Source: Escherichia coli (GTDB taxonomy: Bacteria > Pseudomonadota > Gammaproteobacteria > Enterobacterales > Enterobacteriaceae). From it: 64,000 nucleotides of DNA. Below are positions 1,330 through 26,865 of this stretch, in pieces. The stretch lies in the NCBI RefSeq assembly GCF_003790525.1, contig NZ_CP033635.1; one strand, given 5' to 3'. The notes under the pieces were generated by a model. That model did no database searches and was not told the DNA's origin. It was given only the letters and a program-made list of their open reading frames with translations. Both the position numbers and the translations under genes were made by a program. Positions within the stretch are counted from its first letter, which is position 1. The number at the start of each line of letters is the position of its first letter.

Positions 1330-3435
1330 TTAGTGCGCGCCTTTCGCCTGCGCCACGATCTCCTCGACATTTTCCGGCATCGGCTCATACGGCGTTTCTT
1401 TCGCCGTTGGCTTCGGCTCTTTCAATGCCGCCAGTGCCGTCTTAATCGAGAACAGTGCCAGAACCACCACGACCACCATAAAGAAGATGGTTAACCCGGC
1501 ATCCAGACGGTTGTTGAACACCAGTTGCGCCAGCTGTGACTCGGTATACTGCGACGGAATATTGCCGCTGTCGATCATTGCCTGGAACTTGTTAGCAATC
1601 GCCAGGAAGCCGACTTTTGCATCCAGGCTAAACGCTTTCTGCCAGCCTGCGGTCAGGGTACAAATCAGCAGCCAGGCCGTTGGTACCAGCGCCACCCAGG
1701 CGTAACGTTGACGTTTCATTTTGAACAGCACCACAGCACAGAGCATCAGCGCCATCCCTGCCAGCATCTGGTTGGCAATACCAAACAGCGGCCACAGAGT
1801 GTTAATACCGCCCAGCGGATCGACCACGCCCTGATGGAGGAAGTAGCCCCACGCCAGCACGCACAGCGCCGTTGCCAGCAGGTTAGCAGGCAGTGAATCG
1901 GTCCGTTTCAGGCCCGGAGACACCACGCCCAGCAGATCCTGCAACATAAAGCGCGCAGCACGCGTACCTGCATCCACCGCCGTCAGAATAAACAGTGCTT
2001 CAAACAGAATGGCGAAGTGATACCAGAACGCCACATCCATCATGCCGCCCAGCGCACCGTGCAGAATGTAGGCCATCCCCACCGCCAGGGTCGGCGCACC
2101 GCCCGCACGGGAAATGATCGACTGTTCCCCCACTTCGCTGGCAATCTGATTTAGCGTATCCGGGGTAATCGCAAAGCCCCAGCTACTCACCACCTGCGCG
2201 GCAGAAGCGACTACATCCGCCGTCCCTGCCGGAGCCAGCACTGCCATCGGGCTGTTCATAGCGAAGTACACACCTGGATCGATGATACAGGCGGAAACCA
2301 GCGCCATAATCGCCACGAAGGATTCCATCAACATCCCACCGTAGCCGATAAAGCACGCCTGCCCTTCGTTCGCCAGCATCTTCGGTGTGGTGCCGGAAGA
2401 GATCAGCGCATGGAAGCCAGACACCGCGCCACAGGCGATGGTGATAAACAGGAACGGGAACAGGTTACCGGTCCATACCGGGCCAGTGCCATCGACAAAT
2501 TTAGTTAGCGCAGGCATGGTCAGCGTCGGGCGCATAATCAGAATGCCTACCGCCAGACCGACGATAGTCCCGATTTTCAGGAAGGTTGAGAGGTAGTCAC
2601 GCGGGGCCAGCAGCAACCACACCGGCAGCACCGCCGCCACGAAGCCGTAACCCACCAGCATCCAGGTCAGCTGCACGCCGGTAAAGTCAAAGTACGGTGC
2701 CCAGGTCGGGCTTTCTGCCACCCAGCCGCCAGAGATAATGGCGAAAATCAGGAATACCAGGCCAATCACCGACACTTCCCCAATACGCCCCGGACGCAAA
2801 TAGCGCAGGTAGATCCCCATAAACAGCGCCAGCGGAATGGTGAACGCAACGGTATACGTTCCCCACGGGCTATGAGTCAGGGCTTTCACCACGATCATCG
2901 CCAGCACGGCAAGGATAATGACCATGATCATAAAGCAGGCCACCAGCGCTATCACCCCGGCGGTTGGCCCCATCTCTTCTTTGACCAGCTCACCCAGCGA
3001 GCGACCGTCACGGCGCGTAGAAACAAACAGCACCATGAAATCCTGCACCGCACCGGCGAGAACCACCCCGGCGAGCAGCCAGATCATCCCTGGCAGGTAA
3101 CCCATTTGCGCCGCCAGTACCGGCCCCACCAGCGGGCCAGCTCCGGCAATGGCCGCAAAATGGTGACCGAACAGCACTTTCTTGTCCGTCGGCACATAGT
3201 CCAGCCCGTCGTTATGGCGCACCGCTGGCGTCATACGCGTCGGATCAACCGCCAATACATTTTTGGCGATATAAAGACCATAAAAACGGTAAGCGATCAG
3301 ATAGATACAGACCGACGCCACTACAATCCACAGCGCGTTGATCTGTTCCCCACGATTTAAAGCAATGTATCCCAGAGCAAATGCTCCCATTATAGAGAGC
3401 ACTGTCCAGACGAGGTATTTCCCTGATTTGTTCAT
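1330..3435 (-). CDS. cstA: Carbon starvation protein A (peptide/pyruvate transporter)
   Basis: 701-aa polytopic membrane protein ORF, ATG at 3435-3433; sequence recognised as CstA. Confidence 0.95.
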   Translation of the reverse strand: MNKSGKYLVWTVLSIMGAFALGYIALNRGEQINALWIVVASVCIYLIAYRFYGLYIAKNVLAVDPTRMTPAVRHNDGLDYVPTDKKVLFGHHFAAIAGAGPLVGPVLAAQMGYLPGMIWLLAGVVLAGAVQDFMVLFVSTRRDGRSLGELVKEEMGPTAGVIALVACFMIMVIILAVLAMIVVKALTHSPWGTYTVAFTIPLALFMGIYLRYLRPGRIGEVSVIGLVFLIFAIISGGWVAESPTWAPYFDFTGVQLTWMLVGYGFVAAVLPVWLLLAPRDYLSTFLKIGTIVGLAVGILIMRPTLTMPALTKFVDGTGPVWTGNLFPFLFITIACGAVSGFHALISSGTTPKMLANEGQACFIGYGGMLMESFVAIMALVSACIIDPGVYFAMNSPMAVLAPAGTADVVASAAQVVSSWGFAITPDTLNQIASEVGEQSIISRAGGAPTLAVGMAYILHGALGGMMDVAFWYHFAILFEALFILTAVDAGTRAARFMLQDLLGVVSPGLKRTDSLPANLLATALCVLAWGYFLHQGVVDPLGGINTLWPLFGIANQMLAGMALMLCAVVLFKMKRQRYAWVALVPTAWLLICTLTAGWQKAFSLDAKVGFLAIANKFQAMIDSGNIPSQYTESQLAQLVFNNRLDAGLTIFFMVVVVVLALFSIKTALAALKEPKPTAKETPYEPMPENVEEIVAQAKGAH

Positions 3436-3615
3436 AGTTGTTATCCGTGTGCGTGTCCATAGAGATGTTACATTTTGTTTCTATAACATCTTTGTACAAT
3501 TTAACAACACAGCAACCATATAAATCAGAGTTAAAACCAATATTTAACTTAACAACGTTAACTCGATCACTCCGTTAACCGAATTTTCCTGCAATCTCAT
3601 TTTATTCTGTCGGGT

Positions 3616-4777
<1,162 letters not shown>

Positions 4778-15103: not shown

Positions 15104-18100
15104 TTACCTGTTTAGCGTAGCGCGAATAATCGGCCCAATTTTTTCAAACGCCCCTGGAGAGATAATATCCACATGCGCACAATCCTGACGATAGATATCC
15201 AGCTCCGTAATCCACGGCGACCAGGCGCGTTCGGGATTCATACCTTCCTGAAGCGTGCGTTCAGCAACAAACAGCGTCGCTTTACCTTCAAACGGTACGC
15301 TATGAGCAGTCGTCAGCAGGCGCACAGCATCAGCGTAGTTGCCTTCAATGGTGGTAAACAACTCCGTTGAAGTACTTCCCTGCTGTGCCGCCAGGAAGGC
15401 CTCGCGCTCGCGGTTAATCTCCGCCAGCACTTCCGGGTCCAGGCCATTAGCCTCTTTTTCCTGCCAGTTTTGCGTTTCTGGCGGCCAGGTATCCAGCAAG
15501 CCAAGAAATGCCACCTGTTCGCCACGGGCACGCAGCCGCGCCGCAATACCCTGCGCCAGCGTACCGCCCAGCGAATAACCCAGCAGGTAATAAGGGCCGT
15601 GCGGTTGATGCTCAAGTAACGTTGCCAGATGCGCTTCGCAGACTTCATCCAGATTTGCCGCGGTCTGCATGGGGCCATTGGGGCGCGGCGACTGAATGCC
15701 GATAATCGACCATTGTGGATCGAGATAACGCGAGAGCACGCTGAACTGCCAGGCAAAACCGGAGGCCGGATGGAAACAAAACAGCGTCGGGCCATTACCT
15801 TCACGCAACGGCAGAATGGTTTCGAATCCCATGCGCCGGGAGCTGTCTTCTTCACCATCAATAATCGTTGCCAGTTTGGCGACAGTTGACGCGACCATCA
15901 CTTGCCCCGGCGTCACCTGTCGGGCAAACTGCCGACTTAACTGCGCAGCCAGTTTCATTGCCAGTAGCGAATGACCGCCAAGCGCAAAGAAATCAGCATC
16001 GGCATCCTGCACGTCACAACCCAGCAACGACGAGAATGCCGCGGCGATAATCGTTTCACTGCCCGCTTTCGGCGCACGCCCAGGCGCTTGTGCCTTCAGT
16101 TCAGGCAACGGTAAGGCTTTGCGATCCAGCTTGCCGTTGGCGCTAAGTGGTAACTGTGGAAGTTGCAGCAGAACCACCGGTACCATATGTGGTGGCAATG
16201 TTTCACGAAGCTGCGCCTGTAATGCGCTGGTATCCAACGGCAGACCTGATTGCGACACCAGATAGCCCACCAACTGACGCGCATCACCACCAGTGGCTGC
16301 CGCCTGGTTAATCACACAGGCGTGGGTAACGGCTTGTTCGACATCCGGCAGCGCCTGCATCACGCGATCAATTTCGCCCAGTTCGATACGCTGCCCGCGA
16401 ATTTTTAGCTGATCGTCACTGCGCCCGAGGTACTCCACTGCGCCGTTATCCAGCCAGCGGGCCACATCGCCGGTACGGTACATCCGTTCACCTGGGGCAA
16501 AAGGATCGGCAATAAAGCGGCTGGCGGTCAGATCGGGTCGTCCAAGATACCCCTGCGCCAGTTGAATACCGGTGAGATAGAGATCTCCCGCCACACCCGG
16601 CGGCACCGGATGCATCATCGCATCGAGAATGCGCAGGCCCGTATTCCACACCGGATAACCAATCGGCACACTGCTGCCGCGCACCTCTGCCAGTTCCTCG
16701 CCAAAAGCCGGATACCAACTGACATCTACCGCCGCTTCCGTCGGGCCATATAGATTATGCAACGGCGCGCCGGTTAACTGTTGCCATTCGCGGCATAAAT
16801 CAGCCGGTAAGGCTTCACCACTACAGAAAACCTGTTTCAACGTCGCGCAACTCTGGCGAGCGGTTTGCGGCGTCAGCGATGCAACAAATGCCGCCAGCAT
16901 CGACGGCACAAAGTGCGTGGTCGTTACGCCATAATCAGCAAAAAAATGCTGCATAGCGAGCGGGTCGCGGTGCGCTTCCGGTTCAGCCATCACAAGTTTC
17001 GCCCCGGCAATAAACGGCCAGAAAAACTCCCACACCGAGACATCAAAACTGCATGGCGTTTTTTGGGCAACGACATCTTCGCCTGTAAGCGGGTAATGGT
17101 TTTGCATCCAAAGCAGGCGATTAACGATAGCCGTCTGCCCGACCATTACCCCTTTTGGTCTGCCGGTGGAACCGGAGGTGAAGATGATATAAGCCGTGTG
17201 GTGCGGTTGTGAAAGCTGCAGCGGCGCACTGCCCTGTGGTGTAAGCGGGGCGTTATAGCAAAGGCGGGTTAAATCTGGAACATCGGCAAAGCGCGGCAGT
17301 TGATCGTCGGTGGTGATTAACAGCGACGGACGCGCATCTTCCAGCATCATTTTCAGGCGATCGTCCGGATAGCCGGTATCCAACGGTAGCCAGGCCGCAC
17401 CAGCTTCAACAATCGCATGTAGCGCCAGGGTCAAAAAGACCGAGCGCGGTAATGCCACCGCCACGCTGTCGCCTGGTTTAACGCCGCGCTCACGCAGCAG
17501 ATTCGCCAGCGCCACCACCTGTTCGCGCATTTCCCGATAGCTGAACTGGTAACGCGCATCAACCAGCGCCGGAGCATCCGGTGTTTTTGCCGCTTGTTCT
17601 GCCACCAGCGCGCTCAGCGTGGTTTCTGGAATCTCAACCTGAGTGGCGTTGATCTGCGCCAGCTGCGCATACTCGCCTGGCAGCATAATATCGACATCGC
17701 CGCACAACAGCGACGGATCCGCGGCGAACTGCGCAATCAGCATTTTCAGGCGTTCAGCATGCTGGATTAACGTTGGCTCAGCGTAACGCTGTTTATTGGC
17801 GATGATCTCAATACTCAAATCACCGTGTTCATCCGGGAACAGGGCCAGCTCAAGGTCATTAACCGGACCGGTTGCCAGGGTATGGGTTTGCGCCTGAACA
17901 CCAGGAATATCCAGTTGGTAATCAAATACCTTGATATTGAGTACCGGACCGAACAGCGGTTCCTCTCCTGCCGCTCGCCCACTGTCACGGACAATTTGTT
18001 CGGCGTCGTAGCGTTGATGGCGGCGCATTTTTTTCAGTTGAGCCGCCAGTCGGGTTGCCAGTTGCGGCAGCGTTTCTTGCGCCGCAATGTGAATACCCAA

Positions 18101-22888: not shown

Positions 22889-22927
22889 TGCTAACGTCAG
22901 ATTGTTGACAAAGTGCGCGTCGTTCAT

Positions 22928-23025
22928 GCCGGATGCGGCGTGAACGCCTTATCCGGCCTACAAAAATCTTGCCAATTCAATATATTGCAGGATAGTGTAG
23001 GCCTGATAAGCGTAGCGCATCAGGC
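22928..23025. repeat. BIME: two inverted REP palindromes between fepA and entD
   Basis: GCCGGATGCGGCGTGAACGCCTTATCCGGCCTAC (22928-22961) and the inverted GTAGGCCTGATAAGCGTAGCGCATCAGGC (22997-23025) are canonical E. coli REP sequences. Confidence 0.75.
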
Positions 23026-23062: not shown

Positions 23063-23683
23063 ATGAAAACTACGCATACCGCCCTCCCCTTTGCCGGAAA
23101 TACGCTGCATTTTGTTAAGTTCGATCCGGCGAGTTTTTGTGAGCAGGATTTACTCTGGCTGCCACACTACGCGCAACTGCAACACGCTGGACGTAAACGT
23201 AAAACAGAGCATTTAGCCGGACGGATCGCTGCAGTTTATGCGCTGCGGGAATATGGCTATAAATGTGTGCCCGCAATCGGCGAGCTACGCCAACCTGTGT
23301 GGCCTGCGGGGGTATACGGCAGCATTAGTCACTGTGGGACTACGGCATTAGCCGTGGTATCTCGTCAACCGATTGGCATTGATATTGAAGAGATTTTTTC
23401 TGCGCAAACAGCGGCAGAATTGACAGACAACATTATTACGCCAGCGGAACACAAGCGACTCGCAGACTGCGGTTTAGCCTTTTCTCTGGCGCTGACACTG
23501 GCATTTTCCGCCAAAGAGAGCGCATTTAAGGCATGTGAGAGACAAACTGATGCAGGATTTCTGGACTATCAGATAATTAACTGGAATAAACAGCAGGTCA
23601 TCATTCATCGTGAGAATAAGATGTTTGCTGTGCACTGGCAGATAAAAGAAAAGATAGTCATAACGCTGTGCCAACACAATTAA
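23063..23683 (+). CDS. entD: 4'-phosphopantetheinyl transferase for EntB/EntF
   Basis: 206-aa protein starting MKTTHT; an alternative start MVDMKTT lies at 23054. The listed ORF (from 22913) reads through the REP element and is judged an artefact. Confidence 0.9.
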   Translation: MKTTHTALPFAGNTLHFVKFDPASFCEQDLLWLPHYAQLQHAGRKRKTEHLAGRIAAVYALREYGYKCVPAIGELRQPVWPAGVYGSISHCGTTALAVVSRQPIGIDIEEIFSAQTAAELTDNIITPAEHKRLADCGLAFSLALTLAFSAKESAFKACERQTDAGFLDYQIINWNKQQVIIHRENKMFAVHWQIKEKIVITLCQHN

Positions 23684-23794
23684 TTGACAATATCTGGTAC
23701 GATTCGCCCGCAGCCATCACTGACCACGGGCGAAAGTGTAAAGCAGGTGCCTTACCATCCTGACCTGACAACCGGATATGCGGGGATTGCTCCC

Positions 23795-25130
23795 ATAAGC
23801 GCTAACTTAAGGGTTGTGGTATTACGCCTGATATGATTTAACGTGCCGATGAATTACTCTCACGATAACTGGTCAGCAATTCTGGCCCATATTGGTAAGC
23901 CCGAAGAACTGGATACTTCGGCACGTAATGCCGGGGCTCTAACCCGCCGCCGCGAAATTCGTGATGCTGCAACTCTGCTACGTCTGGGGCTGGCTTACGG
24001 CCCCGGGGGATGTCATTACGTGAAGTCACTGCATGGGCTCAGCTCCATGACGTTGCAACATTATCTGACGTGGCTCTCCTGAAGCGGCTGCGGAATGCCG
24101 CCGACTGGTTTGGCATACTTGCCGCACAAACACTTGCTGTACGCGCCGCAGTTACGGGTTGTACAAGCGGAAAGAGATTGCGTCTTGTCGATGGAACAGC
24201 AATCAGTGCGCCCGGGGGCGGCAGCGCTGAATGGCGACTACATATGGGATATGATCCTCATACCTGTCAGTTCACTGATTTTGAGCTAACCGACAGCAGA
24301 GACGCTGAACGGCTGGACCGATTTGCGCAAACGGCAGACGAGATACGCATTGCTGACCGGGGATTCGGTTCGCGTCCCGAATGTATCCGCTCACTTGCTT
24401 TTGGAGAAGCTGATTATATCGTCCGGGTTCACTGGCGAGGATTGCGCTGGTTAACTGCAGAAGGAATGCGCTTTGACATGATGGGTTTTCTGCGCGGGCT
24501 GGATTGCGGTAAGAACGGTGAAACCACTGTAATGATAGGCAATTCAGGTAATAAAAAAGCCGGAGCTCCCTTTCCGGCACGTCTCATTGCCGTATCACTT
24601 CCTCCCGAAAAAGCATTAATCAGTAAAACCCGACTGCTCAGCGAGAATCGTCGAAAAGGACGAGTAGTTCAGGCGGAAACGCTGGAAGCAGCGGGCCATG
24701 TGCTATTGCTAACATCATTACCGGAAGATGAATATTCAGCAGAGCAAGTGGCTGATTGTTACCGTCTGCGATGGCAAATTGAACTGGCTTTTAAGCGGCT
24801 CAAAAGTTTGCTGCACCTGGATGCTTTGCGTGCAAAGGAACCTGAACTCGCGAAAGCGTGGATATTTGCTAATCTACTCGCCGCATTTTTAATTGACGAC
24901 ATAATCCAGCCATCGCTGGATTTCCCCCCCAGAAGTGCCGGATCCGAAAAGAAGAACTAACTCGTTGTGGAGAATAACAAAAATGGTCATCTGGAGCTTA
25001 CAGGTGGCCATTCGTGGGACAGTATCCCTGACAGCCTACAAAACGCAATTGAAGAACGCGAGGCATCGTCTTAACGAGGCACCGAGGCGTCGCATTCTTC
25101 AGATGGTTCAACCCTTAAGTTAGCGCTTAT
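23795..25130 (+). mobile_element. Insertion sequence IS186 (IS4 family)
   Basis: Perfect 22-bp terminal inverted repeats (ATAAGCGCTAACTTAAGGGTTG at 23795-23816; reverse complement at 25109-25130), flanked by a 12-bp direct repeat GGGATTGCTCCC (23783-23794 and 25131-25142). Exact ends are ambiguous by 1 bp because the target is palindromic. Confidence 0.9.
23849..24960 (+). pseudogene. insL: IS186 transposase InsL, interrupted by an apparent 1-bp frameshift at a G5 run
   Basis: An N-terminal frame (MNYSHDNW..LAYGPGG, stop at 24080-24082) and a C-terminal frame (MSLREVTAWAQ.., 24010..24960) overlap and switch frame at GGGGG 24005-24009. Together they reconstitute a single IS4-type transposase of about 370 aa. 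Confidence 0.7.
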
Positions 25131-25152
25131 GGGATTGCTCCCCGCACAACGG

Positions 25153-25305
25153 CTACTTCTTCGGTTCGTAAGCGAGAACAGCCTTAAACTCAATATTACG
25201 TTCCTTCACCGTAAACTCACACAGCGAGTCTCCGACCAGAAGCGTAAATCCCAGCACCGTCAAACACAGCACTATGACTGCCACAAGGGCATATTTCGTC
25301 AGCAT
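25153..25305 (-). CDS. hokE: Hok-family type I toxin (small membrane peptide)
   Basis: 50-aa peptide [50 protein letters not shown], typical Hok/Gef. The listed 88-aa ORF is an in-frame upstream extension. Confidence 0.85.
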
Positions 25306-25737
25306 GTTTATATTGCCTCCATGCGAAGAAGGGACTACCATCCAAATTGTTCGGGTTTGGAGTGGCAGCCCCAGGGTTGATAGAAATATCTCCTGGGGCT
25401 TCATCTTTCCAGACCTCAAAGTTAACCTGAAACCGGAAAGCTTCAGGCACCCGCCGTTATCTTACCCTTCCTCAACAAAATAGCTGTTTATTTATACAGT
25501 AAATCCTGTTTCGGACTTCTCACTCCCCATTTGATCAACTGAAGCTGAACCCGTTTTTATCTGCACGCCTCAATCGTCAAAATTCTTCGCCGCCAGCCAA
25601 CTATGACGCAACTGGTCACATTGCAAAATGTAGCCAATTTGCTTCAGTCACCATCACCAAAAAAAGAAATATTCCAGAACTTCCGCATCTCGCCCAGTCG
25701 CTCCCACTTCTATACTGAATAGAAAACGCCAACATAA

Positions 25738-26865
<1,128 letters not shown>

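Follow-up and report, generated by a model that had tools for sequence, protein, structure and literature searches.

We analysed a stretch of 64,000 nucleotides (nt) of the Escherichia coli contig NZ_CP033635.1 (hereafter, the window), in which a copy of the insertion sequence (IS) IS186 lies between entD and the toxin gene hokE, in the gene order fepA / entD / IS186 / hokE / ybdK. This hokE::IS186 arrangement is not new: hundreds of public genomes carry it in their annotation. In the window, the IS stands between the toxin gene and its 3' regulatory element, and this hokE is a disrupted member of the hok family, because the IS cuts the fold-back element off and the predicted pairing between the ends of the mRNA is lost. 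The features of the locus are listed in Table 1.

Table 1. Positions of the features of the hokE::IS186 locus in the window (aa, amino acids; ORF, open reading frame)
Feature	Position	Strand	Remark
entD, across the IS from hokE	23063–23683	+	EC332 annotation mapped onto the window
Displaced 3' fold-back element, AGGCACCU	23745–23752	−	Complementary to mRNA nt 1–8
Distal half of the split hairpin, GGAGCAAUCCCCGC	23780–23793	−	Target reconstruction
Target-site duplication, left copy, GGATTGCTCC	23784–23793		10 bp; 12 bp (23783–23794) under the 22-bp parse
IS186 (IS4 family) copy	23794–25131	+	1338 bp under the 23-bp inverted-repeat parse
Left terminal inverted repeat, CATAAGCGCTAACTTAAGGGTTG	23794–23816	+	Perfect 23-bp match
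insL transposase gene, frameshifted	23849–24960	+	ORF list; intact 370-aa gene at the equivalent position in EC332
insL, 5' part	23849–24082	+	79 aa as listed, from the upstream GTG at 23843
G5 homopolymer, site of the −1 frameshift	24005–24009	+	G6 in every other copy compared
insL, 3' part	24010–24960	+	316 aa; start is Met55 of the intact protein
Right terminal inverted repeat, same 23-mer, CATAAGCGCTAACTTAAGGGTTG	25109–25131	−	Perfect 23-bp match
Target-site duplication, right copy, GGATTGCTCC	25132–25141		10 bp; 12 bp (25131–25142) under the 22-bp parse
hokE-proximal half of the split post-stop hairpin, GUGCGGGGAGCAAUCC	25132–25147	−	Intact versus interrupted fold
hokE toxin ORF, intact	25153–25305	−	50 aa; Pfam HOK_GEF (PF01848), 34 bits versus a cutoff of 22
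hokE mRNA leader	25297–25452	−	Rfam RF01794, 81.4 bits versus a gathering score of 59; model positions 1–157, full length
sokE antisense RNA	25349–25408	+	60/60 identical to the annotated MG1655 sokE
Predicted hokE mRNA 5' end, GGGUGCCU	25452–25445	−	Rfam RF01794 match
ybdK	25747–26865	+	ORF list and mapped annotation

The identity of the element is clear from its full length and from its ends. Over 1339 aligned positions, the window copy equals IS186A, IS186B, and IS186C of MG1655 save for one deleted G (1338/1339), and the 1339-bp copies of EC332 and AZ147 likewise differ from it only by that G, at alignment column 212. A five-copy alignment (window, IS186A, IS186B, EC332, and AZ147) therefore has a single variable column among 1339; IS186C of MG1655 is identical to IS186B. 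Both termini of the window copy carry the same 23-mer, CATAAGCGCTAACTTAAGGGTTG, which also forms the termini of the three MG1655 copies. The original prediction, made from the letters of the window, had named the element IS186 and had asked that its terminal and direct repeats be compared with reference IS186 ends; these aligned, and the identification stands. When the 64-kb window was searched for the 23-mer with up to 3 mismatches, the only two matches were the two IS termini, with no second IS186 copy or solo end, and none of 100 dinucleotide-preserving shuffles contained any match. Labels differ among records: RefSeq calls the equivalent element elsewhere "IS4-like element IS421 family transposase," and the MG1655 record reads "insertion sequence:IS186B."

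The boundaries of the element can be drawn in two equally valid ways. The direct repeat GGGATTGCTCCC (12 bp) is found at 23783–23794 and again at 25131–25142, both copies exact. Taken at its full length, it leaves an element of 1336 bp with perfect 22-bp inverted repeats and a 12-bp duplication, which is how the ends had first been described and with coordinates that proved exact; the conventional reading has 23-bp repeats, 1338 bp, and a 10-bp duplication. The two parses are indistinguishable because the outermost C/G of the IS is the same as the adjoining target base. Other copies gave no resolution between 10 and 12 bp, as G and C occupy the ambiguous positions in all four targets. The distance between the hokE stop codon (25153–25155, minus strand) and the end of the IS is 22 bp under the 22-bp parse, in agreement with the earlier figure, or 21 bp under the 23-bp parse. 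When the palindromic target is included, the inverted arms extend to 38 nt and are 89% complementary.

On the other side of this gap, the toxin ORF, the leader, and sokE are all intact. Two of the properties that characterize the hok family are thus present, namely, a Hok/Gef ORF of about 50 aa and a structured leader with a cis-encoded antisense Sok RNA. HokE of the window is identical to HokE of MG1655 at 49 of 50 residues, with V at residue 8 here and A in MG1655. Opposite the hokE leader and sokE, RefSeq annotates a 69-aa ORF (25274–25483, plus strand) as a "hypothetical protein." This ORF is flagged as frameshifted or as having an internal stop in several genomes, and its annotation over the hok/sok RNA region is probably spurious.

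What is missing from the window is the third property. In the plasmid R1 model of hok/sok, which derives from work of the Gerdes laboratory, hok mRNAs are defined by pairing of their 5' and 3' ends (fold-back inhibition). We reconstructed an IS-free hokE mRNA in silico by deleting the IS together with one duplication copy; the resulting sequence exists in strain SMS-3-5. In this mRNA, the hairpin GCGGGGAGCAAUCCCCGC follows the stop codon, and the octamer AGGCACCU lies 53 to 60 nt past the stop. The minimum-free-energy fold pairs mRNA nt 1 to 8 with nt 353 to 360, with pair probabilities of 0.94 to 1.0 for the seven pairs computed (nt 2 to 8). In the window, the IS sits within the loop of that hairpin and, together with one copy of the duplication, puts 1348 extra nt between the hokE stop and the octamer. 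The computed stability of the post-stop hairpin drops from −17.4 kcal/mol when intact to −6.0 kcal/mol when interrupted, and when the interrupted transcript is folded, its 5' end finds local partners and the end pairing is lost. The window thus holds no contiguous mRNA whose 3' fold-back element pairs with its 5' end. The insertion had been placed on the 3' side of the hok mRNA, and the octamer beyond the IS locates it between the hokE stop and the fold-back element. The original prediction had also taken an intact fold-back element distal to the IS as a sign against itself. Such an element is indeed there, yet its presence is exactly what a split by insertion predicts.

We also scanned positions 23600 to 25600 for transcription signals. 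A promoter consensus scan of this interval returned no promoter-like site. The terminator scan of the same interval was at chance level (2 sites versus 2.1 expected) and points to no end for the interrupted hokE transcript. One terminator-like hairpin followed by a T-run lies inside the IS at 24578–24559 on the minus strand, which is the sense strand for hokE, about 550 nt into the element. This site could end transcripts that read through from hokE, the number of such sites being at chance level.

These observations are best explained, with a probability that we put at about 90%, by transposition of IS186 into the GC-rich hairpin loop after the hokE stop, which split the hairpin and displaced the fold-back element. 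Under this explanation, IS186, a DDE-transposase element of the IS4 family, would have transposed into the loop of GCGGGGAGCAAUCCCCGC and would have duplicated 10 bp of the target in doing so (12 bp under the alternative parse). With no 5'-3' pairing close at hand, a stable and translationally inert full-length hokE mRNA would presumably be unable to form, which would leave no regulated hok/sok module. For the window, the loss of this module is what the established hok/sok model would lead one to expect. In K-12, inactivation of hokE by its own IS186 insertion has been reported in the literature, and the K-12 locus is called inactivated because the end pairing, and hence the inert full-length mRNA, is lost.

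The choice of the site can be understood from the target preference of the element. IS186 reportedly inserts where at least four G and at least four C residues are separated by three to six nucleotides of any kind. All four targets that we examined have the form GGGG-N6-CCCC, with GGGGATTGCTCCCC at hokE of the window, GGGGATTACTCCCC at hokE of K-12, GGGGATCACTCCCC at hokC of K-12 (in the orientation of locus L005), and GGGGATAATTCCCC at the nupC terminator of K-12. The target that had been reconstructed for the window, GGGG-ATTGCT-CCCC, was correct and exists unoccupied in SMS-3-5 and in other genomes. The comparison with natural isolates without the IS, which had been suggested as a check, yielded this unoccupied allele: SMS-3-5 and others match the reconstructed empty site at 310 of 310 positions, and the site of SMS-3-5 holds the duplicated bases once only. 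As it stands, the 64-kb window contains no intact GGGG-N3-6-CCCC; the occupied hokE site is the only such site that the region would otherwise contain. A hot spot and a consensus target for IS186 have been published (SaiSree et al. 2001, as cited in later papers), and a single target motif that is already occupied fits this published behaviour. The hok 3' hairpin looks like a general IS186 landing site, because IS186 also abuts other Hok/Gef-family genes in STEC306 and mokC/hokC in EC20 and CP52E, in the last two with an orientation opposite to that of K-12 IS186A.

We then counted the states of the hokE site in 5,426 complete E. coli genomes, a collection that is biased towards laboratory strains. 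The site was empty in 2,899 genomes (about 53%; reconstructed empty site covered to at least 80%). It was occupied in the K-12 orientation in 1,728 (junction) to 1,755 (full length) genomes (about 32%) and in the orientation of the window in 834 (full length) to 839 (junction) genomes (about 15%). Roughly 47% of the complete genomes therefore carry IS186 at exactly this nucleotide. The states overlap slightly, since some genomes carry tandem hokE copies. The two hokE copies of MB53 hold oppositely oriented IS186 elements; the array hokE-IS186-hokE-IS186 is present in MDR_56 and IPCEC48; and in Nord122 and ECL27977, one hokE copy is empty and one is occupied. Across the tandem copies of MDR_56, IPCEC48, Nord122, MB53, and ECL27977, each hairpin is independently empty or occupied. 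Among the fetched loci, both loop alleles (described below) occur with both orientations, and the insertion nucleotide is constant.

Further rearrangements were seen around the occupied site. In LS4 (1–1066), genes for SDR-family oxidoreductases stand where entD normally adjoins the IS, which suggests a rearrangement or deletion with an endpoint at IS186. In a subset of genomes, IS150 is inserted near hokE; in IPCEC48 (2622–3991), the copy stands on the promoter side of hokE, with ybdK beyond it.

The transposase gene of the window copy does not have the single long DDE transposase ORF that characterizes IS186. A −1 frameshift in the G-run at 24005–24009 splits it into two parts, of which the 316-aa part matches Pfam DDE_Tnp_1 with 94.3 bits. 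As read, insL is a pseudogene within a genuine IS186 copy, but the split may come from an assembly error. If the frameshift is real, the window copy would be non-autonomous and would depend on transposase from another IS186 to move. The ORF that starts at Met55 might yield a transposase that lacks its N terminus and works as an inhibitor, a possibility that we regard as weak; the Inh protein of Tn5 provides a parallel. Using an 80-bp probe across the G-run, we found the G5 form in at least 79 scattered and unrelated records, including the K-12 derivative ER1709 and plasmids. These 79 exact matches are a lower bound, because the probe undercounts and matched IS186 in only 2,193 genomes. For comparison, the full-length hokE::IS186 query was covered to at least 80% in 834 + 1,755 genomes. 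Nord122 contains a 1338-bp IS186 copy that is annotated as frameshifted.

Two features of the window copy, its frameshift and its orientation, admit other explanations. A homopolymer sequencing or assembly error in the G-run, with an intact and autonomous IS186 in the real genome, has in our judgment an even chance of being correct. Apart from the missing G, the window agrees with the EC332 locus throughout 2.5 kb, and its IS with all IS186 copies compared, and the sporadic appearance of G5 in at least 79 unrelated records, together with the 1338-bp copy in Nord122, has the scatter expected of homopolymer errors. However, genuine slippage mutations in G-runs do arise, and recurrently, and we consider real slippage and assembly error about equally likely. 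As for the orientation, the same nucleotide is used in both orientations across E. coli, and for this reason we regard the hokE site as a recurrent IS186 hot spot, whose repeated use is the simplest account of both orientations. The orientation of the window could instead derive from a single ancestral hokE::IS186 that was either flipped in place by recombination between its inverted ends or spread by homologous recombination. The two orientations share the same junction nucleotides, the IS copies do not differ (100% identity), and the arms form with the palindromic target the 38-nt, 89% complementary inverted repeat mentioned above, all of which would suit such a flip. AZ147 combines MG1655-type flanks with the IS orientation of the window, and its duplication is a hybrid, with GGAGTAATCC next to hokE and GGAGCAATCC next to entD, which differ by one base. 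This hybrid, which fits recombination between the IS copies of an MDR_56-like tandem array with the loss of one unit, indicates that recombination does act at the hokE locus. Yet the perfect homology available for an inversion is only 23 bp, unoccupied sites identical to the flanks of the window exist, and each loop allele is found with each orientation. MB53, with its two oppositely oriented insertions, and K-12 hokC, with an independent IS186 in an equivalent hairpin, also speak for separate events. A single ancestral insertion thus appears unlikely to us, and reuse of the hot spot is the simpler account, although inversion in place or lateral spread through recombination may apply to individual cases.

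Several points weigh against the explanation given above, at least in its functional part. The consequence for hokE depends on predicted RNA folds and on analogy with hok of plasmid R1. A transcript reading through the whole IS would still hold the fold-back element at its far end, and within the IS the hokE strand has a single terminator-like site, that at 24578–24559, with as many sites of this kind expected by chance. The frameshift, for its part, may be a homopolymer assembly error. Finally, the IS-free loci hokA (E. coli C), hokB (K-12), and hokC (ECOR24) were reported to be unable to mediate post-segregational killing (bioRxiv 10.1101/2025.08.07.668861), and the IS may therefore remove little function. 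Taken further, the insertion could be functionally neutral, with hokE being no active killing module even when free of the IS and IS186 being there only through its preference for hairpin targets. A plain terminator hairpin, that of nupC in K-12, also holds IS186, which indicates that a matching hairpin suffices to attract the element, and the empty site is kept in about half of the genomes, so that no state is fixed. On the other hand, the IS-free hokE mRNA keeps its strongly predicted 5'-3' end pairing, and the intactness of the toxin ORF, the leader, and sokE suggests upkeep of the IS-free module. HokE is moreover among the homologs earlier shown to be toxic, and it served as a positive control in a toxicity assay (bioRxiv 10.1101/2025.08.07.668861). 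We therefore hold neutrality to be possible but doubtful. Selection offers a quite different view of the same counts. The hairpin past the hok stop may be more to IS186 than a match by chance to its target preference: about 47% of genomes are occupied at the exact nucleotide, in both orientations, with both loop alleles, and independently in tandem hokE copies, and the equivalent hokC hairpin holds IS186 too. This pattern would be consistent with recurrent selection to uncouple the fold-back element, by which the IS would disarm or retune the hok toxins of the chromosome. This idea is speculative, and we give it the least credit of the explanations considered here. Occasional precise excision might make such disarming reversible.

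Transposition into the hairpin loop, with displacement of the fold-back element, remains our preferred explanation, and it matters little beyond annotation. The locus should be labelled hokE::IS186, with IS186 in the hokE 3' untranslated region, in an orientation opposite to that of K-12 and with a transposase gene that may be defective. The hokE locus is to be treated as structurally disrupted despite its intact toxin ORF and sokE. Given its variable occupancy and orientation (about 53% empty, about 32% as in K-12, and about 15% as in the window), the site could serve as a lineage marker, and it offers natural, isogenic-like contrasts on the role of the hok 3' fold-back element in chromosomal loci. 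Elsewhere in the neighbourhood, the fepA-entD spacer (22917–23004) matched two Rfam models, ES036 with 44.4 bits, above the gathering score, and the REP-like naRNA4 with 38.4 bits, below it.

Comparison with known loci places the window among several related insertions. An origin of the window from K-12 was considered and rejected, as the flanks share only 94.6 to 96% identity with MG1655 and the alignment of the IS runs in reverse; the flanks belong to the haplotype of SMS-3-5 and EC332. None of the matches of a full-text literature search for hokE with IS186 describes this allele; they concern regional deletions or amplifications or IS inventories. The closest reference insertion is IS186B at hokE of MG1655 (NC_000913.3 608007–609351), which shares with the window the same nucleotide, the same duplication boundaries, and the same displacement of the fold-back element. 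The original prediction had likened the insertion to this K-12 configuration. This was right for the insertion nucleotide, but the IS orientation is opposite and the flanks are not those of K-12. In MG1655, insL2 is co-directional with hokE, whereas the transposase gene of the window is convergent with it; the transposase ORF is intact in IS186B and frameshifted here; and the hairpin loop has T in K-12 hokE (GGAGTAATCC) and C in the window (GGAGCAATCC).

In its orientation, the window copy resembles instead IS186A of MG1655 (15387–16731), whose transposase gene also converges on a hok gene, in this case hokC (gef). IS186A lies at another hok paralog and another chromosomal locus, with the target GGGGATCACTCCCC, but in the same place, a G4-N6-C4 hairpin just past the hok stop. 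When the K-12 hokC mRNA is rebuilt without IS186A, it is predicted to have the same 5'-3' end pairing at the same offset as the IS-free hokE mRNA. The hokE::IS186 loci of EC332, 702/18, 181.1, and EC31 agree with the window in arrangement, orientation, and flanks, and EC332 is 99.96% identical to it over 2.5 kb. Unlike the window, these copies carry G6 and an intact 370-aa transposase. The published IS186 hot spot (SaiSree et al. 2001, as cited in later papers) is likewise a short GC-rich palindromic target that is struck repeatedly. There, the insertion reportedly disrupts a promoter, whereas the insertion in the window splits the 3' structure of an mRNA.

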